From a virus (Duplodnaviria > Heunggongvirae > Uroviricota > Caudoviricetes), in the IMG/VR virus record IMGVR_UViG_2671181056_000008, positions 1 to 17,177 of that record: a stretch of DNA of 17,177 nucleotides; one strand, 5' to 3'. A program made the position numbers and the translations under genes. Positions 1 to 16,481 of the stretch are shown piece by piece (position 1 is the stretch's first letter; each line of letters opens with the position of its first letter). Below the pieces are notes generated by a model that did no database searches, had not been told where the DNA came from, and saw only the letters and a list, made by a program, of their open reading frames with translations.

Positions 1-36
1 GCACGTCACCAGAATTTTCTTCGCGACTTGGGTCAT
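1..36 (-). CDS. metG: methionyl-tRNA synthetase, N-terminal 12 codons only (runs off window edge)
   Basis: Minus-strand ATG at 36..34 translates to MTQVAKKILVTC, the MetRS N-terminus as I recall it; divergent from apbC as in enterobacterial chromosomes. Confidence 0.75.
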   Translation of the reverse strand, partial: MTQVAKKILVTC

Positions 37-193
37 AGTAGGCATTACTTCTTTGTAGTGAAAAGGGGCTTGATAGTAACAAAATGGCCTTATGTCTGCC
101 ATGTGATAACAGCATTTCTCATAAATGATTAAATGTCGTAGCTGGAGTACACTACAAGGCGACAATTGCGCAAATTAAAATAAAGGAGACGGG
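37..193. promoter_or_regulatory. divergent metG/apbC intergenic region with apbC ribosome-binding site
   Basis: 157-bp AT-rich spacer between divergent starts; AAGGAG at 183-188, 5 nt before the apbC ATG at 194. Promoters not mapped. Confidence 0.5.
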
Positions 194-1294
194 ATGAGCG
201 AGTCCAAATCGCCGGATGCCCTGAGAGCAATGGTAGCCGGTACGCTGGCTAATTTTCAGCACCCAACCCTGAAACACAACTTGACTACGCTTAAAGCGTT
301 ACACCATGTTGCGTTGATGGATGACACACTGCATGTCGAACTAATCATGCCTTTCGTGTGGAATAAGCCTTTTGAAGACCTGAAAGAGCAATGTAGTGGT
401 GATCTGCTCCGTATCACTGGCGCAAAGGCTATTGACTGGAAGCTGTCGTACAACATTGCCACGCTTAAGCGCGTCAAAAACCAACCAGGCATTAATGGCG
501 TTAAGAACATTATCGCCGTCAGCTCAGGCAAGGGCGGCGTGGGTAAATCCTCCACAGCAGTAAACTTGGCACTGGCTTTGGCTGCTGAAGGTGCGAAAGT
601 TGGTATTTTGGATGCCGATATCTATGGTCCATCAATTCCAACCATGCTGGGCGCGGAAAACCAACGTCCAACCTCACCGGACGGTACTCACATGGCACCT
701 ATCATGTCTCATGGCCTGGCAACCAACTCTATTGGTTATCTGGTCACCGATGACAATGCAATGGTGTGGCGTGGACCGATGGCGAGCAAGGCGCTGATGC
801 AGATGTTGCAGGAAACACTGTGGCCTGATCTGGACTATCTCGTTCTCGATATGCCACCGGGCACTGGTGATATTCAATTGACGCTGGCGCAGAACATTCC
901 TGTAACTGGTGCGGTTGTGGTAACTACGCCGCAAGACATCGCGCTGATCGATGCGAAGAAAGGCATTGTGATGTTCGAAAAAGTCGAAGTGCCGGTACTG
1001 GGTATCGTTGAAAACATGAGTGTGCATATTTGCAGTAACTGCGGTCATCACGAGCCAATTTTTGGCACCGGTGGAGCACAGAAACTGGCCGAGAAATACA
1101 ACACGCAGTTGTTAGGCCAAATGCCACTTCATATCTCTCTTCGTGAAGATCTGGATAACGGAACACCAACCGTTATTAGTCGTCCAGATAGCGAATTTAC
1201 GGCTATTTATCGTGACCTCGCAGATCGCGTTGCTGCCCAAATGTATTGGCAAGGTGAAGTAATACCTGGCGAAATCGCATTCCGCGCAGTGTGA
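194..1294 (+). CDS. apbC: Fe-S cluster carrier ATPase ApbC/Mrp (ParA/MinD family)
   Basis: 366 aa; P-loop GKGGVGKS, MinD/Mrp-like core, C-terminal CSNCGH cysteine pair; strong Shine-Dalgarno; stop TGA at 1292-1294. Confidence 0.95.
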   Translation: MSESKSPDALRAMVAGTLANFQHPTLKHNLTTLKALHHVALMDDTLHVELIMPFVWNKPFEDLKEQCSGDLLRITGAKAIDWKLSYNIATLKRVKNQPGINGVKNIIAVSSGKGGVGKSSTAVNLALALAAEGAKVGILDADIYGPSIPTMLGAENQRPTSPDGTHMAPIMSHGLATNSIGYLVTDDNAMVWRGPMASKALMQMLQETLWPDLDYLVLDMPPGTGDIQLTLAQNIPVTGAVVVTTPQDIALIDAKKGIVMFEKVEVPVLGIVENMSVHICSNCGHHEPIFGTGGAQKLAEKYNTQLLGQMPLHISLREDLDNGTPTVISRPDSEFTAIYRDLADRVAAQMYWQGEVIPGEIAFRAV

Positions 1295-1295
1295 T

Positions 1296-1320
1296 AAAAA
1301 GGCGGTGCATTGCACCGCCT
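1296..1320. terminator. rho-independent terminator hairpin between apbC and the island
   Basis: A-tract 1296-1300, 8-bp GC stem ggcggtgc (1301-1308) / gcaccgcc (1312-1319), 3-nt loop. On the minus strand the stem is followed by TTTTTA, so it fits the incoming island transcript best. Confidence 0.6.
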
Positions 1321-1331
1321 AATCAGTTCTC

Positions 1332-1721
1332 CTACATCACAGGACAATCATCAAACTCGCCACTTCTTGCGTCGTTGATAATGTGAGTGATCACACCAAA
1401 CACGGCATTGCTGCCCGTGCATCCATCGTCATCCTTTGGCAATGCTTCCTTCTTACCGGTTCTTAAATCCTCCAGATGCTGACGTGGAGACTTCCGGTAT
1501 CTTTTTACGCGATATTCCCCATCCAGAGCGCATACAAGCAGAGAACCATCAACCGGGGTAAGTGAGGAATCAACCACCAGCAATGCACCCTGTAATATTC
1601 CCTCACGATGATGACTATCAGCTGCTCTCATGAAGTAGGTCGCTGAAGGATGTCTAATTATCTGCTGATCAAGAGAAATACGGCTCTCAGCATAATCCGC
1701 CGCAGGAGAAGGGAAGCCCAT
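1332..1721 (-). CDS. UmuD'-like S24 peptidase lacking the N-terminal arm (HumD-like)
   Basis: 129 aa beginning MGFPSPAADY, which matches UmuD from its Cys24/Gly25 cleavage site onward; Ser (AADS) and Lys (RVKR) dyad positions retained; in-frame TGA five codons upstream of the ATG rules out an N-terminal arm. Confidence 0.85.
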   Translation of the reverse strand: MGFPSPAADYAESRISLDQQIIRHPSATYFMRAADSHHREGILQGALLVVDSSLTPVDGSLLVCALDGEYRVKRYRKSPRQHLEDLRTGKKEALPKDDDGCTGSNAVFGVITHIINDARSGEFDDCPVM

Positions 1722-1737
1722 AGCGTTTTGCCCTCAA

Positions 1738-1757
1738 TACTGTTCATTTACACAGTA
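1738..1757. promoter_or_regulatory. LexA (SOS) box TACTGT-N8-ACAGTA
   Basis: tactgttcatttacacagta matches the CTGT-N8-ACAG consensus including flanking TA; sits 17 nt upstream of the UmuD'-like start, overlapping a TATACT -10-like hexamer. Confidence 0.7.
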
Positions 1758-1843
1758 TACATGAAAGAAGCTCACTCAGTGCAACTGATCGGTACATAGC
1801 ACCAGACAAAGGAACGTTATTTTCTCGAACAAGAAAAGGTAGA

Positions 1844-1877
1844 AAACAAATTGTTTAAGGCCACAACTAGTGGCCTT
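1844..1877. repeat. 13-bp palindrome AAACAAATTGTTT followed by GC hairpin, copy 1 of a composite element
   Basis: Perfect palindrome 1844-1856; hairpin aaggccac (1857-1864) / gtggcctt (1870-1877), 5-nt loop. Near-identical element at 6964-6997. Confidence 0.6.
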
Positions 1878-1893
1878 AATGGAGAAGGGATGC

Positions 1894-2457
1894 TTATTGG
1901 CTATGGCTAAAAATCAAATGAGACACTTCATTTGGTTGTAGCTCGTCAAGATCCGGGGCCACAAAACCTTTTCCGAAAGACTTCACAAGTGATTCACCAG
2001 CCGCATCATTGTCACCTATTACGCGAAAGTCATACGGCAGCATTGCCAGTTGACGACGTAATCCTGCTGAGAAAGTCGAACCTAACAGCGCCCACGAATT
2101 TCCGCCCGCGTTGTGCACTGCTGCACTTTTAAAAATCGACTCAGTTATCCATATCGGTCCATCTTTTAAAGGAAGATAGGTTCCCCATAGTAGCTGTCTG
2201 CCGTGCGCTCGTGTGAAATACCGGGCCATCTTCGGATTGCTATGCTGCTTAGGAGCGCCTGGTCTGTATGTCTGATACCCGGCCAACATCCCATCAAACC
2301 TGTATAGAGGGAATGTAACAACTCCTTCGCTTTCATCGATCCACTGTCTATATGGATGCACATCATAGCGGTAGTTACGAGTTAGCAAATGAGCTTCCAG
2401 CTTTCCAAATTTAGTCATAACTTCGCATCCCTCATAACACTTCCCATTTATCACCAT
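1894..2457 (-). CDS. small Toprim-domain protein (DnaG-type motifs)
   Basis: C-terminal half aligns by eye to DnaG Toprim: ITES (catalytic Glu), LGST, VIGDNDAAGE (DxD). Alternative start at 2418 (MTKFGK) avoids the 26-nt overlap with the upstream gene. Confidence 0.6.
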   Translation of the reverse strand: MVINGKCYEGCEVMTKFGKLEAHLLTRNYRYDVHPYRQWIDESEGVVTFPLYRFDGMLAGYQTYRPGAPKQHSNPKMARYFTRAHGRQLLWGTYLPLKDGPIWITESIFKSAAVHNAGGNSWALLGSTFSAGLRRQLAMLPYDFRVIGDNDAAGESLVKSFGKGFVAPDLDELQPNEVSHLIFSHSQ

Positions 2458-3286
2458 ATTTCTCCATAGCTCTTAGCCAATAAACATGGCCACTAGGCAT
2501 AGTGATGTGAGGCTCGCCAAACTCTTCTCCATGTACATCAAAGATGTCCCCAACAGAAAATTGGGGGATTTCTGTTCCGTTTTCACCTATATGTGTAATT
2601 CGTATACGTTTCGGTTGGGATTGTCCACCTTTGAGCGAGTTGTTCACTGCTCTGGCAATTTTCTCCCGCAATTGCTGCGTTCCGTGATACGTAACCGCAA
2701 TATCCCGCAACTCATTCACTAGTTCTCGAATTTGGTGATCTTTAAGCTCATTATTTGGGTGATTGGTAACAACTCTGGTTAATTCCCCATTGTCTTTTGC
2801 TCTTACGTATGCAGCTCTTGTGCATTCGCCCCATGTATTACCGCCTACATTAACTTCGTAGATTAGGCTGGACTTATCTGTCAATTCGGAACAAATACGG
2901 GCCGTGGTCTGGCAACTAGAGCATTCGCAGTTATCGCGGAAACCGTGGTCTACTGGCTTCGGTTTAACATCATCAACTTTTTCTACCCTATTGGAATTTA
3001 AATACTTCGAAGCCTTGCTATGCCAATCGCTGGTTTTAGGATCTTGTCCATCCATCAAACGCCAGGCTTCAGCTATTAACTCATAACTAGTGACTGTAGC
3101 TTCCTGCGCATCACCAATAAGTCGTGTAATCTCTCTTTCAAGCCGACCGCCTAACTCCGTTTTAGTGCAATGTTCTGACCAATCGCCAGTCTCAAGAAGC
3201 GCGAGAATGCTTAAAATATCGTCCAATAGAACGGTAGTATTATCGACTTCCTTCTGAAACTCACCGGCTACTGATTTATGCATCAT
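2432..3286 (-). CDS. hypothetical protein, 284 aa, with CxCxxC cysteine cluster
   Basis: Long ORF; start ATG overlaps the upstream stop (ATGA); no family recognised. Confidence 0.6.
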   Translation of the reverse strand: MMHKSVAGEFQKEVDNTTVLLDDILSILALLETGDWSEHCTKTELGGRLEREITRLIGDAQEATVTSYELIAEAWRLMDGQDPKTSDWHSKASKYLNSNRVEKVDDVKPKPVDHGFRDNCECSSCQTTARICSELTDKSSLIYEVNVGGNTWGECTRAAYVRAKDNGELTRVVTNHPNNELKDHQIRELVNELRDIAVTYHGTQQLREKIARAVNNSLKGGQSQPKRIRITHIGENGTEIPQFSVGDIFDVHGEEFGEPHITMPSGHVYWLRAMEKYGDKWEVL

Positions 3287-3504
3287 TCGTCATCCTCATC
3301 CGAGTCATCCTCATCACAGGATGAGAGTAGTGGGTTAGTCATTCGCCCTACTTGAGTGGCGTAGCAACGCCGACAGAGATTGCGCAGCACACTGTATATT
3401 TCGAACATCTCGGTTCGTTCATCGCCAACATCAAGCTCAGATGCTATAGCGTGGCATTCAGTCGCGAGAGCCGATATTTTCTGAAATAACTCTGCTTTAT
3501 TCAC
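3283..3504 (-). CDS. hypothetical small protein, 73 aa, acidic C-terminus (CDEDDSDEDDE)
   Basis: GTG start at 3504 preceded by AGGAG with 7-nt spacer; overlaps the DUF551-like gene stop. The 93-aa ORF in the track has no ribosome-binding site at its ATG. Confidence 0.35.
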   Translation of the reverse strand: MNKAELFQKISALATECHAIASELDVGDERTEMFEIYSVLRNLCRRCYATQVGRMTNPLLSSCDEDDSDEDDE

Positions 3505-4072
3505 TCTTCGACTCCTGCGGAGGTTCTGGTAGCGGCATCCAGTGAGTTGCTTGCTCAATACCATTACCCGGCTTAATCGTTACATCTCCGCGCCGAAAGG
3601 TGATTCCGGTATAGCGTGCGGAGCATATTAGCGGTTCAACCAGAGAGCTATCGAAATTCACCGAAATAAGCACGTTCTGGCCCTTTTCAGGCATTCGCTC
3701 ACTACAGCTTATCCAACCATCCGGAGTTACCGGATGGGGTCCAGCGAACTCGGGAATGTCAGGACCTTTTCTGATAGCTTTAGCCAGATCCAGCGGGTCA
3801 TCGTAAAGCCAGTCGCCAGTTTGTGGGTGATTTGCTTCTGCAAGCTGCGCAGCCCATTCAAGACCATCTTTTTGACCTTGGAGATAATCAAGCGGCAACT
3901 CTTCATGATTACTTGCAGGTTCTGCACTATCAGCTTCGCGCCGCTTCTGTAGCTCTGCTGCCATCGCTCTCACGACTTCAACTGGTGCCCTTGCAGCAAA
4001 CTCTATGTTGGTGATCAGCTCATTAAGATATTGCTCGCCTGGATACTGTTTCTTATCGGTTATAGTGGTCAT
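3497..4072 (-). CDS. DUF551-like phage protein
   Basis: 191 aa from ATG at 4072 (GGAGAGTGAT upstream); C-terminal segment with THWMPLPEPP resembles the DUF551 signature as recalled. Confidence 0.6.
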   Translation of the reverse strand: MTTITDKKQYPGEQYLNELITNIEFAARAPVEVVRAMAAELQKRREADSAEPASNHEELPLDYLQGQKDGLEWAAQLAEANHPQTGDWLYDDPLDLAKAIRKGPDIPEFAGPHPVTPDGWISCSERMPEKGQNVLISVNFDSSLVEPLICSARYTGITFRRGDVTIKPGNGIEQATHWMPLPEPPQESKSE

Positions 4073-4073
4073 A

Positions 4074-4460
4074 TCACTCTCCTTTTCCCTGAAGCATAGC
4101 AGCGCGGCAGGCATTCCAGCCTCTCACCTCTGCAATAGCGGCAACAGCATCAACCGCGTACATGCTAAGAGGATTAGGCATTGGTTTTTCTTCCGGTACT
4201 ACTGGAACGGGTGGAGCGGCGTAGACCTCAATAATTCCATTATCAATAGGCCATTCTCCATCCTTGAGGTAGTCACTTGTGCCGTCAACTTGCTGTTCTG
4301 CAATGTGGAATGCACCTATTGGTTTTGCTTCCAGCGATGCCAGAGCAATTCGTGCCAGTTCTTCCGCTTCTTCTGCTGGCAGTACAACGTTGCTACCAGG
4401 TCCGTATGTTTCGCGCCACTGTTTGATTGTCAGTAGTCGCTCTTTGGTAATAGTGGTCAT
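4074..4460 (-). CDS. hypothetical protein, 128 aa
   Basis: ATG at 4460 preceded by AAGGAG; C-terminus ends KGE immediately before the next gene's start. Confidence 0.6.
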   Translation of the reverse strand: MTTITKERLLTIKQWRETYGPGSNVVLPAEEAEELARIALASLEAKPIGAFHIAEQQVDGTSDYLKDGEWPIDNGIIEVYAAPPVPVVPEEKPMPNPLSMYAVDAVAAIAEVRGWNACRAAMLQGKGE

Positions 4461-4470
4461 GTGTTACTCC

Positions 4471-4734
4471 TTAACCCGCAGTGCTTTCAACTGATGAGGG
4501 GAACAAAATCCTTTCATCAAATCCGGCATTCATATCATGGACAGCAACACACCAATCCATCGACGAACGATTATCAAGAGCCTCCATGATTTCATCCATG
4601 CGGCGCAGGTCATACAGGTAAATGCTTTTATCGCCAATGGTGTAAAAACCAATTTTTTTCGGTGATGGGCAGCGATCAAGAACGTCCTGTAATTCGTTCA
4701 ACCATGCCCGTTCTTTTTTTGTTAAAGTTGCCAT
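4471..4734 (-). CDS. hypothetical protein, 87 aa
   Basis: ATG at 4734 (MATLTKKERAW) one nt after the upstream stop, preceded by GGAGAGTGAT. Confidence 0.55.
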   Translation of the reverse strand: MATLTKKERAWLNELQDVLDRCPSPKKIGFYTIGDKSIYLYDLRRMDEIMEALDNRSSMDWCVAVHDMNAGFDERILFPSSVESTAG

Positions 4735-4735
4735 A

Positions 4736-5257
4736 TCACTCTCCTTTGATGCGAATGCCTGCTGCAATGCTGTTTATGATGCTGTCAGTGCATGGAGTAG
4801 AAAGCTGGGCATCTCCAGCAATTTTCATGACCTCAACATCCGCATATCGAATACCGAGGTGTATCAGACCGGCTATACCTGACTTAAGTCGAACATTTTC
4901 CATAAACAGATCTTTTTCCCGCTGTTTAGCGGCTTCCAACTCCATCGACAATTTTTCCAACTGCTCTTTATGCTTCTTGTATTCCTGATACGCGTGCCAA
5001 GACTGACCTTTGCGCACACTATCAGTGATATCAGCAACCTGCTCCGGTGTTAGCGTGGTCAGTGGCTGTGCTGGAAAAATCATCACTTTCCCGGCATCCC
5101 AATCAAAACCCGCCTGAATTGACTGAACCTCAACTGATGGTGTTGAACCGATGCGACCAGGCGAATGAACAACGATCGTTACATCCATATCGCGACGATG
5201 GCTGTGGTTGTTGGACAAAATACGATTCACCAACTCAGAAAATTTGGAAAATTTCAT
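4736..5257 (-). CDS. hypothetical protein with Ea22-like C-terminus (AAGIRIKGE)
   Basis: 173 aa from ATG at 5257 (AAGAGGGA upstream, ATGA overlap with the upstream stop); last 9 residues identical to those of the 5579..6109 product. Confidence 0.6.
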
Positions 5258-5577
5258 GCTGATCCCTCTTTCTCTCCCCGGATAATTCTGTTGCACACAT
5301 CCACACACTCGTCGCAGATGAAAACGGCGTCCCCAGCAATTAACTTTTTGACGGCGTACTGGGATTTGTTGCAGAAGCTGCAACAAAGTGTTCGCCTGAC
5401 TGATAAGGATGGAGCGCCAGATGTCAGCCGCTCCATATCGTTCTTGCGACGCAATATCACACGGCTGAACTCAACCAGTTTCTCCGGGGATATCTCCTCC
5501 TCCGTAGCAAGCGCCTCTAATCGTTCGAGTATGTGGAAGGCTTTTTTCTGGGTAATTGCAGAATGCGATGTGGTCAT
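5254..5577 (-). CDS. small protein with C-terminal ClpX-type C4 zinc-binding domain
   Basis: 107 aa; [38 protein letters not shown] closely matches the ClpX N-terminal zinc-binding domain (CSFCGKSQ...RKLIAG...YICDECVDLCNDIIREE) with all four Cys; ATG at 5577 behind GGAGAGTGAG. Confidence 0.75.
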
Positions 5578-5578
5578 C

Positions 5579-6109
5579 TCACTCTCCTTTGATGCGAATG
5601 CCAGCGGCGCGGGAATCATTCCATCGCTTTACTTCTTCACGAATTACGTCAATGCATTCTTTCGAATCCATTAGGTAATCTTCATCAAAAAGACGTTCCT
5701 GTTCGTTTTCTATCGCAACAATGATTGCTTCAACTAACTTTTGTGCCTGAGAATCACTTTCTAACTCTGCTATGCGCTTACTTCCATCCGAGATAACGCC
5801 CTCGTAATACTCACGCTGCTCGTTGAGTTTTGATTTTGCCAACTCCAGTTGTTTTGTTAGTTCCGCAATACGGCAAACATCGTTGATACGCGTTTCCTCT
5901 AATGCGTTGATCTCATCCAGTAGTGCCAGCACGGTTTCTGGTCCGGCCAGAAATTTGAAGGCGTTGAGGGCATCAATATCAACACCGCTATCTTTAAGTT
6001 CCTGTTCACTTAACAAGTCATCATCAGCTGGCAACATTAACAGGCGTTCCATTGCTGGAATTGCACGTTCCGCCACCTCACGCAGTGCCTGGTAATTAAT
6101 TTCGCTCAC
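5579..6109 (-). CDS. Ead/Ea22-like family protein
   Basis: 176 aa; GTG start at 6109 behind GGAGG; MSEIN N-terminus, [27 protein letters not shown] block and AGIRIKGE C-terminus match lambda Ea22-like proteins as recalled (unverified). Confidence 0.65.
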
Positions 6110-6350
6110 TGGCTGCCTCCTGCTTTTCTGCCTTCAACACCATGCGAGAACCATCATCCAGCTCCCACACTATCTCACCACCTTCAGCCATGACCAGTTG
6201 CCACACCAATTGAGCAGCCTCATTGGTAACATCACGACCTGGATCATTGCCAACGCGCATACGTCCACCTTCAACATCGCGCATTTTTGCCAGCATGATA
6301 GTTTTTGATAGCGGTGAAAAACCAAGCTGTAGTCGTGCTGAATTACTCAC
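6096..6350 (-). CDS. hypothetical protein, 84 aa
   Basis: GTG start overlapping the upstream TGA (GTGA), preceded by GGAGG at 6-nt spacing. Confidence 0.5.
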   Translation of the reverse strand: MSNSARLQLGFSPLSKTIMLAKMRDVEGGRMRVGNDPGRDVTNEAAQLVWQLVMAEGGEIVWELDDGSRMVLKAEKQEAASERN

Positions 6351-6889
6351 TGGTTGCCTCCTTTGCGAAGCTGGGCAGCAAAGTCAACTAACCACTCAGT
6401 CATTTCAACCTTCCCTACCAGGTCTGAACCAGGGTGCATACAGCAATCACTCTGCGCCGCTTTGAAATCCTTATACTCATATTCTTGGGCCACCAGATTT
6501 TTTGCAGCTTCTATAGCAGCATCCACCCCCTGCGCACGTACTTCAGCCAGAAAAGCATCGGTGGCTGGAGTCTCCGTTAATTCGCTAACCCAATTATCTC
6601 CGTGTTCCTCGGCACACATCGCATCGAATGCTCGCTCAGATTCTTTCAGGGCTGCATTCTCCGCCGCTAATGCGTCTCTCTGCGCCCGCAACTTCTCAAT
6701 TTCGGCAGCCATGTAGTAACCAACCATAGCGAAGACGGCAAAAGAGTTGTCTGCCTCATCAGGCGACACTGAGGCCATTAGCAGACCATCGTAATAATCG
6801 TGACTCCCATTGGTGATCGCCACCTCATAGGAGTCGTGGTTCTCACGCTTGTGAATGAGAACTACGGGGTTTTCGATTTTGTTACTCAT
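6347..6889 (-). CDS. hypothetical protein, 180 aa
   Basis: ATG at 6889 preceded by AAGAGAAAAACAC, a leader shared with three other genes; first gene after the 6964-6997 element. Confidence 0.6.
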   Translation of the reverse strand: MSNKIENPVVLIHKRENHDSYEVAITNGSHDYYDGLLMASVSPDEADNSFAVFAMVGYYMAAEIEKLRAQRDALAAENAALKESERAFDAMCAEEHGDNWVSELTETPATDAFLAEVRAQGVDAAIEAAKNLVAQEYEYKDFKAAQSDCCMHPGSDLVGKVEMTEWLVDFAAQLRKGGNQ

Positions 6890-6963
6890 GTGTTTTTCTC
6901 TTCTTTGCTGTTACATAAGCACTACCAAGTGCTGGTTTATTTTCACAAATAAGAAAATGTAGA

Positions 6964-6997
6964 AAACAATTTATTTAAGGCCACAACTTATGGCCTT
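6964..6997. repeat. composite element copy 2: degenerate palindrome AAACAATTTATTT plus GC hairpin
   Basis: Hairpin aaggcca (6977-6983) / tggcctt (6991-6997), 7-nt loop; about 85 percent identical to 1841-1880 over roughly 45 bp. Confidence 0.6.
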
Positions 6998-7027
6998 TAT
7001 TTATTCATGCCGAAGGATTTGTAGCGT

Positions 7028-7408
7028 CTAATTGCCGTATAAAATGGGGTGAGGTGCTTGCCAGTAGGCTCCACCGGTCCATGTGAACCCCATGCGAATA
7101 AGAGTGTTTATTGCGGCTTTGGTAGACTCCGATTCGACACTGGCTTTACGAAACTCTTGAACCTCTTTCGCCAACCTGTATGTAATTGTGCAGGGGACGA
7201 TTGCAGCCCAGCCTTTCTCATGACTGTTAATGACCATCTGGATGTGACCATCCAGAATAGGTTGATTAGACATGTTATTGAAAATGTCTGCCTGTTTTTG
7301 AATGTGAAGAAAAAGCCTTGCCAGCTCCATTTGCTCACTACGAGACAAGGGATTATCAAGAGGGCTTTTTGCAAAAGCGGCTATACGCTGTGCGTCAATG
7401 CCAAACAT
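7028..7408 (-). CDS. hypothetical protein, 126 aa
   Basis: ATG overlaps the upstream stop by one nt (TGATG); no family recognised. Confidence 0.55.
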   Translation of the reverse strand: MFGIDAQRIAAFAKSPLDNPLSRSEQMELARLFLHIQKQADIFNNMSNQPILDGHIQMVINSHEKGWAAIVPCTITYRLAKEVQEFRKASVESESTKAAINTLIRMGFTWTGGAYWQAPHPILYGN

Positions 7409-8112
7409 CAGCGCACCTCACCATCTTTATGGCTGGAGTTAACTTCCGCCATTAAATGTCTGACGTAATCGACAAGAGAGCCACCTGGTGGAATCTGGCA
7501 TTCCTCAACTAACTGGAAGTAGATATCCGCAGCATTACGTGTATTGCTACCCGCGCATATTCTTTCTTCCCGAAGTGCATGAAGCTCGTTGATCAAACGG
7601 TCACACTCTCCGTTACGCTGATCCACAACAGCCTCAAGTTCTGCGACGCGTTCACCTGGCGTCTTACCTTCTTCGCGTTGGATGGTAACGACGAAATCGC
7701 CAATTGCAGGGACGTTGTAATCCAGCTCAAGGTAGTTTTTGGCACCGCTGCGGACGAACTCACCCGCGAACATGGTGGCGAACATCTCAGAGGCCATTGT
7801 GCTGTTGAAAAGTGACTCCAGATCTAACGGAGTCCCGGCAGCCAGAGCCTCTTTTGCTGTATCCATTGTATCCATGAACCGATCAAACTCATTAGCGCGC
7901 TTTTCCAGGTCTTTCCATTGCTCGCTCCAACGTTTGGCAATGAAGTCTATGAATGTTTTCGCGGATTCATCAAAATCCCCCTCAAACTTAACGATGCCTT
8001 TATCAATAATGATCTGGCCTACCGCATCCTCTGCATAACCTTTCAATGTAAACTTGAAAGGAAAATCAGAATGGCCTGTGACGTTAAAATGCTCTAACTG
8101 GAGGTTGTTCAT
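7408..8112 (-). CDS. hypothetical protein, 234 aa
   Basis: ATG at 8112 preceded by AAGAGAAAAACAT; no family recognised. Confidence 0.6.
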   Translation of the reverse strand: MNNLQLEHFNVTGHSDFPFKFTLKGYAEDAVGQIIIDKGIVKFEGDFDESAKTFIDFIAKRWSEQWKDLEKRANEFDRFMDTMDTAKEALAAGTPLDLESLFNSTMASEMFATMFAGEFVRSGAKNYLELDYNVPAIGDFVVTIQREEGKTPGERVAELEAVVDQRNGECDRLINELHALREERICAGSNTRNAADIYFQLVEECQIPPGGSLVDYVRHLMAEVNSSHKDGEVR

Positions 8113-8173
8113 ATGTTTTTCTCTTATCGTTTAGTTATTACATTCTTACACAAATTAAGTAAGTATTTACCTA

Positions 8174-9859
8174 TCATTTAACGCGTTTGAAAACGTATAC
8201 GCTGACTGTGATCCCTGTGTCTTCAAACTCGTTGGTAAACGACTTCCCTCTGGCATAAACGTAATTATCCATCGTCATCCAGTCCAGTATTGGCGCAGTG
8301 CCCGGCAATACTGCTACAAGACGCCCGCCGACTTTCAGATGCCCCAGCGCAGCCAGCGTGTGCTCTCTATGACGACCAAGCGAGTACGGCGGGTTCATAA
8401 CGATTTTGTCGAACTGATAACCTGCGTTGTCCTCAGACCACTTTATGAAGTCGCAGCAAATCGTGTTCGTATACCCTTTTCCACGCAGGATATCAGCGAA
8501 GAGAGGTGCGATTTCTATGCAGGTAACATCTTCCAGATCGGCGTTAATATAGGCCAGAAGATCCCCACGTCCGGCTTGAGGCTCCAACAGCTTCTCACCA
8601 GGCTTCAATTCAGTGGCTCTGGCAACGTACTCAGCAATCAAGCGTGGGGTAGGGTAGAACTGGTGTGATTTTGTATCCGGTATTAAACCGGTAGCCACAA
8701 TCGTATTTAGCGTATGGCCGATCTCATACGGGAACTGCCAGTGCTTTTTCTCCTGCACGCCGCCAATGAAGCTCAGTGTGCGCTCAAGCTCTTCCACCTG
8801 CGACTTCTGGAGAGCTGAATCAGAGAAGTACCATACGCCTTTGTCTTTGCTCAATCGCCCGTCACGAAGCGCAGTGCGAACCGGCACGGAGATCGTCTTC
8901 TGGATTAACCCGAACTGCTTTGGTGCCCGTGTTTTTGGCGCAGTTCGGCATGGCGCGGGGATTGCAGCAGGCATACTGTAAGCCAGCACCTCATTCAACT
9001 TCCAGGCCACGTCAGGATGTATTTCAAAGTGAACGTTGCCGTTCTTGAACATCTTCACGCGCATCAGATTTCCATCGACGTTCATCCAGTCACCGGTCTG
9101 GCAGTCGTTTGCCCGATACGCAGCTGATAGCACCTCAGCAGTGCGGTTGATGGTAATAAATTCTTTGTGCGCGAAGAAATGAAGCAAGACACGCAGATCG
9201 TCGATGTAGTCCTCTTTGCGATAGTTCACGCTAACGCTGTCACGCCAGAAATCAGAAATGCAGTCAGCGATTATCAGACGCTCGCTGAAACCGTTTGTCT
9301 TATTTGTCTTGTGCGCAGGACTCAGCGCCTTAAACAAGCCATACACGCGCTCAGAGAGATATTTGTGCCTGTCATTCAGCAAATTAAGCATCGTTGGTAT
9401 GACCGTTTCTGCTTTGAACTCCGGTACACCAACGAACTCTTTAACCTTCATCTGATAGCCGGTTCTGTCAGTTTTGATGACTTCCTGCTTGCCCTCGATA
9501 AATAGCTCACGCCACTCGTCGCGACGGGAAGCTGGCATGATCAGCAGAACGTTAGTCATATCCGTAACCTTCCTCCAGTACTCGGCCCAAATATTCTGTT
9601 TCACCCATTCCAGATCGACGTTATCCAGCCAGACTCGATTCAAACGTGAGCGATCTTCATCTGGTCGGTGGTTTAGTCGAAGCAGGCGATTAATCATGTT
9701 GTGGCGTTCATCGCCATAAACGAAGTCGTGTACCTGATACATGAAGGAGATCTCTTTCTCGCACTCGGCCACAATTTCGTGGATGACGTTCATTTCCTGT
9801 CGATAGTCGATAGCAGTGTTTGAGCTGGCATCGCCCATGATGGAAAGGGCTGTATTCAT
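8174..9859 (-). CDS. two-domain protein with C-terminal N6-adenine DNA methyltransferase domain
   Basis: 561 aa; FYPTP, then SAM-binding EPQAGRGDLL, then NPPY about 70 residues later (gamma-like motif order), only about 55 residues after NPPY; N-terminal 400 aa unassigned. Confidence 0.85.
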   Translation of the reverse strand: MNTALSIMGDASSNTAIDYRQEMNVIHEIVAECEKEISFMYQVHDFVYGDERHNMINRLLRLNHRPDEDRSRLNRVWLDNVDLEWVKQNIWAEYWRKVTDMTNVLLIMPASRRDEWRELFIEGKQEVIKTDRTGYQMKVKEFVGVPEFKAETVIPTMLNLLNDRHKYLSERVYGLFKALSPAHKTNKTNGFSERLIIADCISDFWRDSVSVNYRKEDYIDDLRVLLHFFAHKEFITINRTAEVLSAAYRANDCQTGDWMNVDGNLMRVKMFKNGNVHFEIHPDVAWKLNEVLAYSMPAAIPAPCRTAPKTRAPKQFGLIQKTISVPVRTALRDGRLSKDKGVWYFSDSALQKSQVEELERTLSFIGGVQEKKHWQFPYEIGHTLNTIVATGLIPDTKSHQFYPTPRLIAEYVARATELKPGEKLLEPQAGRGDLLAYINADLEDVTCIEIAPLFADILRGKGYTNTICCDFIKWSEDNAGYQFDKIVMNPPYSLGRHREHTLAALGHLKVGGRLVAVLPGTAPILDWMTMDNYVYARGKSFTNEFEDTGITVSVYVFKRVK

Positions 9860-9962
9860 AATTGCACCATTAAGAAATGATTTGTTTAATGATGCAATTA
9901 TTTCAAAAATAAAAAGGTGCTAAATAGAAATTAACAGGCAATACTTAAAATAAAGGCATTGA

Positions 9963-10864
9963 CTAATCATACTTGGATGTATTTATAACCAGGACTTTAT
10001 TTGTATATAGTTTTTTTACATTCCATGTAACATTACTTGAATACCATTCACCATTATATATTTGGTTTCCCGTTGCGCCTGTCATTGTTACGTATACAGG
10101 TCTGTCGTAAGGTGTTCGTCTATAGTTATATACTCCAACCATTGCAGGCATTATCGCACACGGGTATCCCATATTTATGGTAAATTGAGGATTTGTAATA
10201 GTGATAATCTCTGCATCAAGGGGCATCATCTCACCGTGATATACCATTTTACCTGCGCTATTATACATGGCAATACCATATCCTGAATGTGGTAACACCA
10301 TATCAGAAAAAGCATAAACTGTTATCGTTCCGGGGTTTCCTCCAACCTGATTCAGTCTGAGAACATTATACCCATCTCTAAATTCATGAACGAACATCAT
10401 ATTCGCCTTATTACTGCTTTTTATAAAGAAAAAACATGATTTGTTCGACGGTATTGAAGTCTTAAAAACAGAACCTTTAGACGTGGACATTGTCCCCCTA
10501 TTAATCAAATTTTGCGGTGTAAATTCTGGACTCATCCACACATTACCATTTGACTGAGTAATTGACATCCCGAACATTATTGTTATCCCCAATATGTATA
10601 TATATAAGATCCAAGTCCCTTGTATAAATTTGACCAACTTACTGTATTGCCGTTAATAGTGATAGTTGGTGTAGGTATATTTACATGGTTATCGTTATTT
10701 AAAGGCATCAATGAGCACACAGCATGTAATGATTTGCCAGGTGGTGGATTTGGGTAAGTCTTAGAGCCTGACGTGGTTGTAAATCGATCAAGAAAAAAAA
10801 TAGGAGTAAGGAAGCCGGTAACGTTAACTCCCTTATTATTGTAGATCCCTGTACCGTATGCCAT
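9963..10864 (-). pseudogene. AT-rich gene split into two frames at a (TA)5 tract
   Basis: Frame A (10583..10864, 93 aa) has a good ribosome-binding site; frame B (9963..10637) continues 200+ aa from a TTG. Frames differ by one nt and the (TA)5 tract at 10597-10606 lies in the overlap; removing one TA fuses them. Confidence 0.4.
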
Positions 10865-10890
10865 TTTTCATCCTTGTTTTTATCAACATA

Positions 10891-10914
10891 ATATGGCCGA
10901 TCATGCGGCCATAT
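10891..10914. terminator. inverted repeat ATATGGCCG-N6-CGGCCATAT, candidate terminator
   Basis: 9-bp perfect stem with 6-nt loop, 4 nt after the 10919 stop; followed on the minus strand by a T-rich stretch. Confidence 0.45.
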
Positions 10915-10918
10915 CAGA

Positions 10919-11488
10919 TCAATTAGAGCTTTGAAAGGCTTTGTGTGGCTGTGTTGCGAGGTTATGTCGATGGCTTAACTCACGCATCATGTCTTCAAGG
11001 CGACTCTTTGTGTCGTCGAGTTGGTCAGCCATTGCTCCTAAAAGCTGACGAACTACCATCGGATCGTCGCTGTTTAGTGATGGCATTTTATAACCCGCCT
11101 GAGAAGACATCAGATTGAATGCTGACATCAACATCGTTAGAGAGGATTTAAGCCCGGCAATTTCACGATCTTTGCTGGCAATAATCGTCTCACTTTTGTT
11201 ACTGTCATGAGTTCCTTGAGTCTCGATCACCATATCCAAAGTCTCTTGCAACTTATCAGCTCTCTGTTTTTCAGCAAGATAATGAACACCGAAATGATGT
11301 GCTAAAGCTACAACCTGAGTTGGCTCTTCAAAGGTGGACTCAAAATTAAGTGCTGTAACCACTCTCTCAAAAATGGAAACGTCTTCTATTCCTCGAAGAA
11401 TGGCTAACATTTTGACAAGTTCATTAGCATCCATTTCTTCGAATAGGGCGTTTTGTTCATCAGCTATTGCTTTGCATTTCTCGCACAT
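10919..11488 (-). CDS. hypothetical protein, 189 aa
   Basis: ATG at 11488 preceded by AAGGAAAACAT; leader carries the palindrome at 11507-11519. Confidence 0.6.
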   Translation of the reverse strand: MCEKCKAIADEQNALFEEMDANELVKMLAILRGIEDVSIFERVVTALNFESTFEEPTQVVALAHHFGVHYLAEKQRADKLQETLDMVIETQGTHDSNKSETIIASKDREIAGLKSSLTMLMSAFNLMSSQAGYKMPSLNSDDPMVVRQLLGAMADQLDDTKSRLEDMMRELSHRHNLATQPHKAFQSSN

Positions 11489-11506
11489 ATGTTTTCCTTA
11501 ATGCTT

Positions 11507-11522
11507 AAACAAGTTGTTTTCT
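11507..11522. promoter_or_regulatory. palindrome AAACAAGTTGTTT (operator-like), copy 3
   Basis: Perfect 13-bp palindrome 19 nt upstream of the 11488 start; the 16-mer aaacaagttgttttct is identical to 12236-12251. Confidence 0.5.
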
Positions 11523-11627
11523 TATTGGCTTTATTGTGATGTGGCATAAAAGGGGAGCAAGCTAAACGTAAAGGTGCAAACTCTCTATTTCGGTCAACGA
11601 AACACAATGGCCATTTGACCCTTGTCA

Positions 11628-11786
11628 TTAACACGTTGCTTTACGGACTAGCGGATAAGCGAAGTAGATCGCCAGACCAATGAGGACGCCATCAGAAATG
11701 ACAGACATCATCTTTCCCGTAAAATCCACCAACACCGCCATCACCAGAAGAGCAATGACGGTCACAAGCCGGAATCTCTCAAGCAT
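11628..11786 (-). CDS. small hydrophobic peptide, 52 aa, two predicted TM helices (not in ORF track)
   Basis: ATG at 11786 overlaps the TerB-like stop (TAATG); hand translation gives MLERFRLVTVIALLVMAVLVDFTGKMMSVISDGVLIGLAIYFAYPLVRKATC, stop at 11628-11630. Confidence 0.4.
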   Translation of the reverse strand: MLERFRLVTVIALLVMAVLVDFTGKMMSVISDGVLIGLAIYFAYPLVRKATC

Positions 11787-12211
11787 TAGAGATAAGCATC
11801 CAGTGACAACTGAAGCGCCTGGGCGATCTTTTTCAGCGCCTGCTCTTCTGGTTCATCAATGCCGTCTTGGTCGGCAATATCAAGGCACAGACAAAGTACA
11901 TCTACTGCATCATCAGTCCCGGCCACATCCGCCAGCTCACGTAAAGCCTGGGCATTAGCACGGCGCGGTGAGGCTTCGTATTGAGCGCGGATATTGGCGC
12001 TCATCTGGGCTATCTCACCAGCAAAAGGAGAAAATGCAGGCAGAGCTGCAATTGTTTTCTCAAGAATGGAAATTTCTTTTGCATCGCATGTACCGTTGGC
12101 ATAGGAGATCATGTACCCACCCCACACGGTGGCTTCAACCGCATCACGGTTCTCCATTTTTTTGACTTCGATAACTGCTTTACGAGTTTTCTTTTTGAAG
12201 AAACCTAACAT
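11786..12211 (-). CDS. TerB-like domain protein
   Basis: 141 aa; MLGFFKKK N-terminus and C-terminal DIADQDGIDEPEEQALKKIAQALQL resemble tellurite-resistance TerB as recalled; ATG behind AAGGAAAACAC. Confidence 0.6.
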   Translation of the reverse strand: MLGFFKKKTRKAVIEVKKMENRDAVEATVWGGYMISYANGTCDAKEISILEKTIAALPAFSPFAGEIAQMSANIRAQYEASPRRANAQALRELADVAGTDDAVDVLCLCLDIADQDGIDEPEEQALKKIAQALQLSLDAYL

Positions 12212-12235
12212 GTGTTTTCCTTTTGTTATTGGTCA

Positions 12236-12251
12236 AAACAAGTTGTTTTCT
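12236..12251. promoter_or_regulatory. palindrome AAACAAGTTGTTT (operator-like), copy 4
   Basis: Perfect 13-bp palindrome 25 nt upstream of the TerB-like start; same 16-mer as copy 3. Confidence 0.5.
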
Positions 12252-12304
12252 AGTTAAATAAATTGCTTACGCAAAGACGGTCAATGCATATGCACTAACA
12301 ACCG

Positions 12305-12493
12305 TCAGAAATAACCAAGTACCGAACCGACTGGAAAAATAAAAATCCCAACTACACGAGCCAAGGTCATGCCAGCCTGAAACTGGAGATCGCCAGAGCA
12401 AACAAGTTTTATAATGTTCGATACCCAACCGGCGGCCATGAGGGCAAGAATTGCCAGCCAAATTTTTCCAAAGTGATTTGAAAACCAGTTCAT
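12305..12493 (-). CDS. small membrane protein, 62 aa, two predicted TM helices
   Basis: Two hydrophobic segments (IWLAILALMAAGWV, VVGIFIFPVGSVLGYF); ATG overlaps the stop of the 12490..12741 frame (ATGA) and lies 9 nt after the 12503 stop. Confidence 0.5.
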   Translation of the reverse strand: MNWFSNHFGKIWLAILALMAAGWVSNIIKLVCSGDLQFQAGMTLARVVGIFIFPVGSVLGYF

Positions 12494-12502
12494 ACAACCG
12501 CC

Positions 12503-12997
12503 TTAGTCACAGCATGATCCTGAGTAACTGGATGAACTTGAGGTATCGCATCCACCGTCATCCCATCCAGAGTGACAGGTCGCTCTACTGGAGTGGTGGT
12601 AATTGTCGTCGACGGAGGTGTGGTGATGGATGAATCCGGCATCAAAAGGCTCTGACCGGCTGGAACGGCTACCGTCGCCAGTGAAACTATAATGAGAACG
12701 TAGGCCATTGGTTTCAGCCTCTTTCTTTGAAAATTTTCCATTCGAACTGTCCTTGTTGTTTTTCTCCTTCACTAAAGGCCGTGCATTTTTCGCTTCGCGT
12801 GAAGAACCAGAGGCAACAATCGCCCACACGTTCGCAACAACTGACGCTTGATTATCTAAACGTTCATTCAGCAACCGAACGGTAGTCTCTAGTTCATCAA
12901 GGCGTGACATAACACGACCGCTAAATAATTCGGCCAAAATTTGACGTAAAGAACGAGGACGTTTAGTTACAGAAGTGAAATAGGTTTGACGTGCCAT
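12503..12997 (-). CDS. hypothetical protein, 165 aa, with a second signal-peptide ORF nested out of frame
   Basis: ATG at 12997 behind GGAG; N-terminal 60 aa protein-like, C-terminal half Ser-rich low complexity and overlapped by 12490..12741 (signal-peptide-like MAYVLIIVSLATVAVPAGQSLL). Which frame is expressed is unresolved. Confidence 0.45.
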   Translation of the reverse strand: MARQTYFTSVTKRPRSLRQILAELFSGRVMSRLDELETTVRLLNERLDNQASVVANVWAIVASGSSREAKNARPLVKEKNNKDSSNGKFSKKEAETNGLRSHYSFTGDGSRSSRSEPFDAGFIHHHTSVDDNYHHSSRATCHSGWDDGGCDTSSSSSYSGSCCD

Positions 12998-13026
12998 GTG
13001 GACTCCATCCAGTGTCATAAAGAGTT

Positions 13027-13048
13027 GCGGCTGGCAATCGCCAGCCGC
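13027..13048. terminator. GC-rich hairpin, candidate terminator or attenuator
   Basis: 9-bp stem gcggctggc / gccagccgc with 4-nt loop, immediately upstream of the 12503..12997 gene; U-tract weak on the minus strand, better (CTTTCTCGTT) on the plus strand. Confidence 0.4.
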
Positions 13049-13142
13049 CTTTCTCGTTCCATCCTGGAACTGTGTCTTACCGACACATTGTCATCCTGAC
13101 GCCGATAAGATACATGATTTATAATGATAGGTAAACACTTAC

Positions 13143-13736
13143 TTACTGTTTGTTATAAACAAAACCAATATCTTTCTTGTGAGGCATATCTGCTGCTGAA
13201 AAAGCTGCGATCTTCGCGAGTCGATCACATATTTCATTTTCACGATGCCCGGCGTGACCTTTAACCCACTTCCAGCGAACATTATGTCGACTTGCGGCCT
13301 CATCCAGACGCTTCCACAGATCAACATTCTTTACCGGTTTTTTGTCAGAAGTCATCCATCCATTGCGTTTCCACCATTTCATCCACTGTGTCATGCCGTT
13401 TTTCAGATACTGGCTATCAGAGTGCAAAATAACGTTGCATGGATATTTCAAACGCTCCAGCCCGATAAGTGCCCCCATCATCTCCATGCGGTTATTGGTG
13501 GTGCTATGAAAACCATCTGAGAACTCGCGTTCCTCGCCACGATACTGGAGAACGATACCGTAACCGCCCGGGCCACCCGGATTTTTAAGGCAAGAGCCAT
13601 CACTAAAGATTTTCACGGTTTTAAGCTGGGGATTGAACTCTACGACAGGCGTTGTGGGATTGGTGCGGGGAGAATTTTTGTTTTTGTCTTTTTTGCGAGT
13701 TTTTGCTTGCGGTCGGGCTGGTGTCTTCGTTGTCAT
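13143..13736 (-). CDS. rnhA: ribonuclease HI homologue with basic N-terminal extension
   Basis: 197 aa from ATG at 13736 (AGGAG upstream); core [17 protein letters not shown]...TNNRMEMMG...HSDSQY...[11 protein letters not shown] aligns closely to E. coli RnhA; about 40-residue Lys/Arg/Pro-rich N-terminal extension. Confidence 0.9.
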
Positions 13737-14317
13737 ATAAACTCCTGAATCAAGCGCCGCGCCGATTTTTCCTCGCGCGTGCGCACACGCGTGCGTGTTA
13801 ATAATTATTAAAATAAACAAATTACTTCCCAGAACAGGTTTTTATAAACCTGAACTGAACGAACGAAGTGAGTGAAGTTCACCTCGAACGAAGTGAGAGG
13901 TTGTCTTTTCAGGTAATACTCTCCCAGGGAGGTGAGTATAAAATTCCTCACCAACCTGGTCGTTTCATAACCTGAAAAGCTATGGTCTAAGTCTACTGCC
14001 AGCTTAGACTTGGGAAGTTATGGATGACAGCACCCCAGAACCGAGATCTTCCCACACTTTATGAAGGGGAGTACTGGATTCAACCTCTCGAAACACCCCA
14101 GACTCGACAATCATAAAGTGACCCTTGTCTCCGCTCACTTTGGTTCCCCCTTCCCCGACACCTAAACGGCACCGGTTCTACGCTGGTAGTGAGCTTTTTT
14201 AAACCTGACGCCAGTGACGCTTACCCCCACCCATCAGGTCGAGTCTCCAGTCTACGACTGGAAACTATCAGATCTTAGCACTTACAATTCATCTTATGAA
14301 TAGTTTGTACTTATCTA
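13737..14317. other. 580-bp ORF-free structured region (candidate ncRNA, origin or regulatory hub)
   Basis: No ORF of 60 aa or more; 25-nt alternating purine-pyrimidine tract (13774-13798), 14-bp AT palindrome (13798-13811), 13-bp direct repeat (13860-13872, 13885-13897), several hairpins, repeated CACCCCAGA, two AGATCT sites. Confidence 0.4.
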
Positions 14318-14548
14318 TCATTTCGATTGATTATTTTCTCGACCATGTAGTTGAACATTCAAGGCAAACACCTCGTTGATCAACTCACCTAAAAGCTGTT
14401 CAACAAGTTCGCGATGCTCCCCAAGATGCAAGCACTTAATTGCCCACTCGTACAAGTTGAAAGCCTGCTCACGATCTTTCATCATTTCACGAGCCTGGGC
14501 CAGAAAATCGCTGTCTACGAGCGCAACGACATTAGTCGGGTATGACAT
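14318..14548 (-). CDS. hypothetical protein, 76 aa
   Basis: ATG at 14548 (MSYPTN) preceded by AAGGAA; the upstream ATG at 14572 has no ribosome-binding site. Confidence 0.5.
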   Translation of the reverse strand: MSYPTNVVALVDSDFLAQAREMMKDREQAFNLYEWAIKCLHLGEHRELVEQLLGELINEVFALNVQLHGRENNQSK

Positions 14549-14652
14549 GTTGGTTTCCTTAAAGTGGTTCATAAAATCGATTTTAAAGCGTCTGGGAAGG
14601 GGGTCTAGTGGATTCTGTAGTGATGTTCAGGTCTGGAGTCTCTGATACAAAA

Positions 14653-14714
14653 CAGCCTGCTTCCGTATATTAATAATTAATATGTAGTTATTTATATATA
14701 TACAGAAGCAGGCT
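14653..14714. terminator. long inverted repeat with AT-rich palindromic loop, candidate terminator plus promoter
   Basis: 10-bp stem agcctgcttc (14653-14662) / gaagcaggct (14705-14714); loop holds a 17-bp palindrome ATATTAAT-A-ATTAATAT and a (TA)5 tract; followed on the minus strand by GTTTTGTATC. Confidence 0.45.
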
Positions 14715-14735
14715 AATTACAGACGCCAGAACAAA

Positions 14736-15329: not shown

Positions 15330-15396
15330 CTTCTTTCTCGATAGGTAAGTAAATACCTATTTTTGCATTTGATTTTATGTATGGCAATCAAATAAA

Positions 15397-15471
15397 ACGC
15401 GCCAGAAATGCGAACAAGAAGCTCTCTGGCGCGTTTTTTTGGTGCTGGGTATGGGTTATCTTACCCAGCAC
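15397..15471. terminator. tandem hairpins: bidirectional terminator candidate plus a second GC hairpin
   Basis: Stem acgcgccag (15397-15405) / ctggcgcgt (15426-15434) followed by T7 on the plus strand and by TTTTATTTGATT on the minus strand; second hairpin gtgctgggta (15442-15451) / tacccagcac (15462-15471). Confidence 0.5.
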
Positions 15472-15511
15472 TATAAAGCTCTCTATGGGCTTTATTTTCA
15501 GTAGGGGAACG

Positions 15512-16480: not shown

Positions 16481-16481
16481 T

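Follow-up and report, generated by a model that had tools for sequence, protein, structure and literature searches.

A minus-strand gene in the 17,177-nucleotide stretch of Caudoviricetes DNA analyzed here (the window; positions 1 to 17,177 of IMG/VR record IMGVR_UViG_2671181056_000008) encodes a homolog of UmuD and converges on apbC. The locus raises two questions: whether this gene yields a protein already in the activated UmuD′ form, and whether it lies at the edge of an island bordering a host gene, as an earlier note made from the sequence alone had proposed, or in some other kind of DNA.

The humD gene and its family

The gene and its presumptive ribosome-binding site are located as follows:
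1332..1721, minus strand: humD, encoding a 129-aa arm-less UmuD′ homolog whose start residue is the equivalent of UmuD Gly25
1731..1736, minus strand: Shine-Dalgarno-like GAGGG, read directly from the sequence and overlapping an in-frame TGA at 1736-1734

The open reading frame of humD comprises 129 codons, starts with MGFPSPAADYAESRISLDQQ and reads MGFPSPAADY at the N terminus. The segment M-GFPSPAADY aligns with UmuD C24|G25FPSPAADY, the cleavage site being absent. In frame 5′ of the ATG are the codons GGG CAA AAC GCT, preceded by the TGA, and because this stop lies four codons upstream of the ATG, the N-terminal arm cannot be encoded. The proposal that the gene begins at the post-cleavage glycine behind an in-frame stop is borne out, and an upstream in-frame start encoding the arm, which the earlier note had named as counter-evidence, was sought and not found.

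The humD product scores 218.7 bits (cut-off 120) with the NCBIfam equivalog NF051876.1 ("HumD family translesion DNA polymerase"), over positions 1-129 of 129. Its likeness to P1 HumD, suspected from the sequence, holds on alignment, with 91% amino acid identity, no gaps and equal length (129 aa); identity to Escherichia coli UmuD is 42% across UmuD residues 25-139. Among solved structures, the best matches are UmuD′ (1UMU, E = 5e-23) and UmuD on the RecA filament (8GMT). An AF2 model with a pLDDT of 63.8, built from a low-diversity alignment of 50 sequences and thus supporting the UmuD′-like core only, its tail being unreliable, retrieves the same UmuD′ and UmuD-RecA structures.

Two other identities were considered for the product and rejected. 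The S24 domain (Pfam PF00717) was the only domain matched in the 129 residues, and the LexA model aligned with residues 4-79 at 27.9 bits (cut-off 111); a LexA/CI-type repressor was rejected because the N-terminal DNA-binding domain of such S24 repressors is lacking. A self-cleaving, full-length pol V accessory subunit of the UmuD/MucA/RumA type was likewise rejected, the product having no arm and the gene no umuC operon. A tblastn search with E. coli UmuC gave no match (best E = 7.6) in the window, where the earlier note had also seen no umuC, or in the whole 109-kb element p09EL50 described below, among whose 129 annotated features no Y-family polymerase is present. E. coli hosts possess umuDC. 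Judged by sequence, humD belongs to the HumD family, of which it displays every sequence-level defining feature, and is predicted to work like UmuD′. The gene is already known: it is the ortholog of P1 humD, and RefSeq names the protein as a HumD family member.

With P1 HumD the product shares its 129-aa length, the MGFPSPAADY start, the stop four codons upstream, a GEFDDCPV tail and the absence of an adjacent umuC. With E. coli UmuD/UmuD′ (PDB 1UMU, 1AY9, 1I4V, 8GMT) it shares the S24 β-fold, the 42% identity and an upstream LexA box. Unlike UmuD, it has neither the 24-residue arm nor the Cys-Gly site, so that there would be no RecA-dependent activation step, and humD stands outside any umuC operon. 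The GDSM of UmuD is degenerate (ADSH) in the product, which also carries a 4-residue loop insertion and a 10-residue acidic C-terminal extension.

The DNA of nine homologs was examined: P1, D6, N15 gp26, phiKO2 Gp23, HK639, Enterobacter MII_001 (Ecl_MII_001), Hafnia yong1, Aeromonas pAEv1818 and Cyrano. Their proteins start with M/V-GFPSP (MGMPKFASP in Aeromonas), and a UmuD-like arm is found in none of the nine. Over-long database versions of the family run to 148-223 aa; their extensions, which close with ...IAMGFPSP, are in part translations of the LexA box. On this evidence, the entries with long N-termini, some of them labeled "LexA family transcriptional regulator", are start-codon over-calls. 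The columns of UmuD Ser60 and Lys97 vary in the family (S/T/Y/Q and K/M/R, respectively), which would fit a protein no longer required to cut itself, and the window allele retains the equivalents of both residues in the degenerate ADSH context. The 10-residue extension SGEFDDCPVM, absent from UmuD, is nearly invariant across the family.

Homologs were detected in 92 phage records and 687 plasmids, and form 555 protein clusters. Among the plasmid homologs, 178 are at least 95% identical and reside mostly on 107-113-kb plasmids, while 424 are 90-95% identical and reside on plasmids of P1 size. An identical HumD is encoded by a 107-kb Shigella sonnei plasmid. One contig (P0037), taken up as a candidate Klebsiella context of the SSU5 type, was rejected: it holds a telomere phage of the phiKO2/N15 type and is duplicated head to head.

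Regulatory signals and expression

Four features bear on the transcription of humD:
1295..1331, minus-strand terminator: 37-bp gap between the convergent genes apbC and humD, with a hairpin at 1300-1320 and then a T-run from 1299 to 1295
1738..1757 (read from 1757 to 1738): LexA (SOS) box TACTGTGTAAATGAACAGTA, 16 nt 5′ of the humD ATG, predicted from sequence
1754..1784, minus strand: putative humD promoter, with −35-like TTGCAC (1784-1779), a 19-bp spacer and −10-like TATACT (1759-1754)
1855..1879, minus strand: terminator-like hairpin that would end the upstream toprim-domain gene (1894-2457); −16.2 kcal/mol, z = −5.4

The 17-kb window has no CTGT-N8-ACAG site other than the humD box. This loose pattern is not rare by chance, 0.20 occurrences being expected and 36 of 200 shuffles containing one; the full-arm form TACTGT-N8-ACAGTA appeared in 0 of 200. 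Against the 20-bp LexA consensus the box scores 16/20 with all four mismatches central, the E. coli umuDC box scoring 18/20, and it differs from the P1 humD box by one base. A second LexA-like site at 13543-13562, with two arm mismatches and inside rnhA, was judged to be a chance occurrence.

The box is upstream of the start in all nine phage homologs, 32-62 nt before it, and the phiKO2 record itself annotates a lexA site. Cyrano, which matches the window at 98% across the humD coding sequence but has unrelated DNA upstream, nonetheless carries a box (TACTGTATGTGTATACAGTA) at the same distance.

The earlier note had described a near-consensus LexA box overlapping the promoter. The box stands, whereas the promoter is putative: a consensus promoter scan of 1200-2000 returned zero sigma-70 sites at its threshold, and the −35-like TTGCAC matches the consensus at 3/6 positions. 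The promoter call was made by manual reading and from the position where homology to P1-type elements begins, which is exactly 1784, i.e. the −35-like hexamer. Since the −10-like hexamer (TATACT, 1759-1754) shares bases with the left arm of the LexA box, we infer that promoter and box overlap.

Downstream, the hairpin in the gap has a G+C-rich 9-bp stem and, in the terminator scan, a T-run on the minus strand only. Its RNA folds at −18.6 kcal/mol (z = −4.6), and none of 200 shuffles folds as well. By these properties the hairpin and T-run are an intrinsic terminator for humD, and the spacing of 37 bp from the end of apbC at 1294, like the orientation of the terminator toward the humD transcript, agrees with the earlier description. 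With the hairpin at 1855-1879, humD is flanked by predicted terminators on both sides and would thus form its own transcription unit. An Rfam scan of the whole window gave zero matches.

Similar arrangements are seen in N15 gp26, phiKO2 Gp23 and the lambdoid "UmuD-like" morons (HK639, HK140), which are arm-less, LexA-boxed, terminator-bounded single-gene cassettes with 64-73% identity. They differ in lying between tail-fiber genes and sopB or int, and in having Thr as the Ser60 equivalent; in the N15 group, the humD homolog is divergent from a dinI homolog.

Expression was assessed for the Cyrano ortholog, CYRAN_98, by reanalysis of the LF82 RNA-seq data (PMC9928086 S1 Table; log2(fpkm+5), two replicates per condition). 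Values were 7.4/6.9 in LB, 9.6/9.9 in the medium control B1, 9.1/9.0 in the medium control B6, and 11.4/11.3 and 12.1/12.3 after 1 h and 6 h in macrophages (PMC9928086). The change from LB to macrophages at 6 h (log2 ~7.2 to ~12.2) amounts to about 30-fold, but part of the rise is also seen in the medium-only controls B1 and B6, and the macrophage-specific rise is only ~4-8-fold (PMC9928086). Neither apbC nor metG increases across the five conditions: in the first replicate, apbC goes from 6.7 in LB to 5.9 in macrophages at 6 h, and metG from 4.2 to 3.1 (PMC9928086). The authors of that study regard macrophages as a genotoxic, SOS-inducing environment, citing the level of the SOS response (PMC9928086). 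For SOS control of humD, the Cyrano data are indirect support.

The carrier element and its modules

On either side of humD, three further features define the neighborhood:
1..36, minus strand: 5′ end of metG (methionine-tRNA ligase), divergent from apbC; from the RefSeq annotation of p09EL50
194..1294, plus strand: apbC (mrp), a diverged second copy borne by a phage-plasmid; NCBIfam ApbC equivalog, 759 bits
1785..1812, no strand: short junction, 28 bp standing where P1-type plasmids have the lxr-upf93.6 operon (~1.1 kb)

Plasmid p09EL50 of E. coli O104:H4 2009EL-2050 matches the window at 99.9% identity, Escherichia phage CMS-2020a at 100%, phage PhiR41_1 at 98% and Cyrano (pLF82) at 96-98%. 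These relatives are circular elements of ~108-110 kb that carry capsid, portal, terminase and tail genes together with a RepB initiator and ParB proteins, and that also encode RNR, ThyA, DHFR, DnaE, a DnaB-like helicase, ligase and a RecA homolog. Sequence comparison shows partial homology to Salmonella phage SSU5, which is also described in PMC9928086. The phage structural genes, the plasmid genes and the SSU5 homology together identify them as SSU5-group phage-plasmids. The metG/apbC layout of p09EL50 recurs in PhiR41_1 and Cyrano, and full-length metG and apbC are present on every one. The metG-bearing members of the group, pWPMR2 of S. sonnei, Cyrano/pLF82 and p09EL50, are the same element family with the same metG-apbC-humD block.

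Read as an island boundary, as in the earlier note, the locus would have an apbC that belongs to the host chromosome, followed on the minus strand by the genes of an integrated island or prophage, with the island end or attachment site within 1295-1331. That metG and apbC are divergent neighbors on enterobacterial chromosomes, just as in the window, and that the gene content turns abruptly phage-like past apbC, is what an island would give. This reading is nevertheless almost certainly wrong, since apbC itself, like the phage genes, is 99.9-100% identical to circular plasmids and phages of 107-113 kb. All 5426 of the 5426 complete E. coli genomes surveyed keep their own chromosomal metG-apbC, ~83% identical to the window at the nucleotide level, and 227 of the matches in the same survey are plasmid-borne. 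Among species-representative genomes, the best 80 of 484 apbC relatives reach at most 95% amino acid and 81% nucleotide identity. Against chromosomal copies the window apbC is about 80-84% identical in nucleotides, with dS of 1.3-1.6 and dN/dS of 0.02-0.03, which argues for an old functional capture rather than a flanking host gene.

A comparison of the apbC 3′ flank, suggested as a way to find the attachment site, revealed a different kind of boundary. Chromosomal similarity ends at 1290-1301, around the apbC stop, P1 homology starts at 1333, and the hairpin of the gap is absent from all 80 chromosomal flanks (those of the best 80 of the 484 relatives). By sequence comparison, apbC is old cargo of a mobile element and 1295-1331 is the junction of a metG-apbC module with a P1-type humD module; lying within a phage-plasmid, this junction leaves no attachment site to define. 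A donor of metG-apbC was not found among the best 80 loci, the closest being those of Citrobacter, Escherichia, Salmonella diarizonae and Enterobacter with 94-95% amino acid and at most 81% nucleotide identity.

The P1 side of the junction was delimited by blastn against the P1-like plasmid p702_18_3, in which window positions 1333-1784 correspond to 4992-5445 and 1813-3734 to 6542-8463 (coordinates of its locus, L003). Identity is 85% for humD with its promoter and 98.4% for the following toprim/EaA/DUF551 genes, and between the two segments p702_18_3 has a divergent lxr-upf93.6 operon of ~1.1 kb. The P1-type and SSU5-type phage-plasmid families have evidently exchanged the humD region, to judge from these alignments, and humD with its LexA-boxed promoter, coding sequence and terminator is, on the same grounds, a self-contained cassette common to phage P1. 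The P1 gene differs from the one described here in its carrier (P1-like vs SSU5-like), in the presence of the lxr-upf93.6 operon, which shares the P1 LexA box region, and in having phd-doc downstream instead of a convergent apbC with a dedicated terminator.

Could humD then be a neutral or decaying passenger of such recombination, functionless now? That segments have been traded with P1-type plasmids in a mosaic fashion is plain, the lxr operon having been lost along the way, and the humD region is described as highly variable in P1-like plasmids (PMC9603915). Against this stand an intact, full-length reading frame with a dN/dS of 0.064 relative to P1 and of 0.064-0.086 across the comparisons with P1 and D6. 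The gene is under strong purifying selection. Its LexA box, Shine-Dalgarno sequence and terminator have been kept, the homologs on the 687 plasmids and 92 phages are full-length, and transcription of the Cyrano ortholog is strong and regulated. We consider loss of function highly improbable.

Proposed action of HumD

The preferred reading is that humD most probably encodes a LexA-repressed, damage-induced surrogate of UmuD′ acting with host UmuC and RecA-ATP as a pol V-like enzyme. In the undamaged cell, host LexA bound to the box overlapping the −10 region would keep humD expression low. DNA damage would activate RecA, LexA would be cleaved, and HumD would be made. Because translation begins at the Gly25 equivalent, HumD should need no RecA-mediated self-cleavage; it would form dimers immediately and assemble with UmuC of the host and RecA-ATP into a pol V-like translesion polymerase. 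The slow UmuD-to-UmuD′ checkpoint would thereby be bypassed, and damaged DNA of the phage-plasmid, and of the host, would be replicated at the cost of mutations.

We would expect the copy in the window, given its 91% identity, to have the same function as P1 HumD. In recA430 lexA(Def) cells, mutagenesis reportedly returned when the P1 protein was supplied (McLenigan et al. 1999, J Bacteriol 181:7005), and in the same work it is said to have dimerized and to have bound both UmuC and RecA filaments.

The RecA filament enters into another explanation, in which HumD is mainly a UmuC-independent modulator of activated RecA or of the SOS response, working through the filament groove or through its tail and the partners of SSB, with translesion synthesis as a side effect. 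Several observations are compatible with such a role. The catalytic dyad varies in the family, and the conserved acidic tail EFDDCPVM resembles the SSB C terminus MDFDDDIPF. The gene always travels without umuC, and in the N15/phiKO2 group it is divergently paired with the dinI homolog; DinI is a regulator of the RecA filament. The element encodes its own RecA homolog, and UmuD binds the RecA filament in PDB 8GMT. On the other side, HumD keeps the core of UmuD′ and its N-terminal segment GFPSPAADY, as expected of a pol V subunit, and P1 HumD is reported to complement UmuD′ functions and to bind UmuC (summarized in PMC7092418). Taken as the main activity of HumD, modulation of this kind seems unlikely, and the LexA-repressed UmuD′ surrogate is preferred.

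The tail nevertheless deserves attention in its own right. Aligned from the C terminus, E-F-D-D-C-P-V-M-COOH of HumD and D-F-D-D-D-I-P-F-COOH of SSB share an acidic residue at −8, an aromatic at −7, Asp at −6 and −5, and a hydrophobic residue at −1, and the HumD tail is predicted to be flexible. That it docks on the sites of SSB partners, or competes with SSB there, making HumD more than a pre-cut UmuD′, is a long shot judged by this resemblance. If true, SSB-coated gaps could receive a HumD2-UmuC polymerase by way of the tail, or repair could be redirected to the benefit of the phage-plasmid. A related idea is that HumD and the RecA homolog of the element could make two of the three pol V Mut components phage-plasmid products. 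From the 10-aa tail and the variable dyad, HumD may do more than copy UmuD′.

For the HumD family itself the locus adds little new biology: P1 humD has been characterized since 1999, a curated family model exists, and RefSeq and phage databases already list this same element. It does offer databases a correction, in that the entries with long N-termini or the "LexA family transcriptional regulator" label are start over-calls, and the sole loose end is the conserved SSB-tip-like tail. More generally, the housekeeping look of a metG-apbC pair does not prove a chromosomal context: here the pair has long resided as cargo in a family of phage-plasmids that is clinically widespread. Multidrug-resistant lineages of E. 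coli and Shigella are among those in which SSU5-type phage-plasmids circulate, and the practical relevance of humD there is modest. Phage-plasmid-borne metG has been connected with survival under antimicrobials (Tam et al. 2024, via PMC12452169), and in the parts of the literature consulted on metG-bearing SSU5-group phage-plasmids, metG is treated and no text on humD was found. An SOS-inducible, pre-activated pol V cofactor beside this tolerance-linked metG could raise the supply of mutations under quinolone or trimethoprim stress.

Start site, active-site residues and tail of HumD

In large database clusters of HumD homologues (e.g., 1430 and 427 members; proteins P0028, P0055, P0052, P0024, and P0076), the N-terminus is spuriously extended by 19-94 residues, and the entries are called, for example, 'LexA family transcriptional regulator'. 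Their real start is the internal M-GFPSP. The equivalents of the UmuD catalytic residues Ser60 and Lys97 are residues 35 and 73 of the window HumD in an alignment of phage HumD homologues with UmuD. Among the phage homologues both positions vary, with Thr, Tyr or Gln in place of Ser, and Met or Arg in place of Lys, a pattern consistent with relaxed selection for self-cleavage after loss of the arm. The protein ends in a short tail:

window 1335-1358, HumD residues 122-129: C-terminal tail E-F-D-D-C-P-V-M

In the alignment this tail is almost invariant across the HumD family and absent from UmuD; with pLDDT < 50 in the structure model, it is predicted to be a flexible segment. Aligned from the C-terminus, it is similar in sequence to the D-F-D-D-D-I-P-F tip of E. 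coli SSB, a likeness of which we found no mention in the accessible literature.

Neighborhoods of humD in other phage groups

The window lacks the divergent lxr-upf93.6 operon, which in P1-type plasmids shares the LexA-box region with humD:

window 1785-1812, versus 5446-6541 of the P1-like plasmid p702_18_3: lxr-upf93.6 gap

The 1.9 kb beyond this gap, encoding toprim, EaA-like, and DUF551 proteins, matches a P1-type plasmid at 98.4% identity, which indicates from sequence that the P1 and SSU5 phage-plasmid families exchanged DNA recently. In the phiKO2/N15 group, humD and a dinI homologue are divergent, with a LexA site in between. Two contigs of this type, L097 (GCA_040064345.1, 108.6 kb) and L098, contain a perfect head-to-head duplication in the order tail fiber-dinI-humD-sopB-sopA/sopA-sopB-humD-dinI-tail fiber, which reflects either telomere-phage replication caught at an intermediate stage or misassembly.

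Cargo genes and expression of the HumD orthologue

The phage-plasmid has its own full-length second copy of two housekeeping genes, metG and apbC:

window 1-36, minus strand: 5' end of metG
window 194-1294: apbC

Compared with any chromosomal copy, they retain ~95% amino acid but only ~80% nucleotide identity, with dS > 1 and dN/dS of ~0.02, and these values point to a long-ago capture since retained under selection. In Shigella sonnei, a link has been reported between metG carried on phage-plasmids and survival of antimicrobials (Tam et al. 2024, cited in PMC12452169). Lysogens of Cyrano, the near-identical phage-plasmid of LF82, transcribe apbC, which appears among the listed morons as 'septum site-determining protein' (PMC9928086). 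Cyrano also encodes a HumD orthologue:

Cyrano 7037-7426: CYRAN_98

According to RNA-seq values in S1 Table of PMC9928086, CYRAN_98 expression in macrophages at 6 h is ~30-fold that in LB and ~4-8-fold that in medium controls; in the examined part of the table, few genes show stronger induction. It is left out of the list of Cyrano's morons, despite an LB read count above that of apbC. Downstream of rnhA, the ~580 bp at window 13737-14318 contain no annotated gene, no open reading frame of at least 50 amino acids, and no Rfam match.

Replication and repair genes of p09EL50

Beyond the window, the ~109-kb phage-plasmid p09EL50, 99.9% identical to it, encodes a RecA homologue:

p09EL50 27187-28260: RecA homologue

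It also codes for DnaE, a DnaQ-like exonuclease, a DnaB-like helicase, ligase, RNR, ThyA, and DfrA51. Of the three components of pol V Mut, HumD and the phage-plasmid RecA would together account for two, UmuD' and RecA, but not for UmuC.
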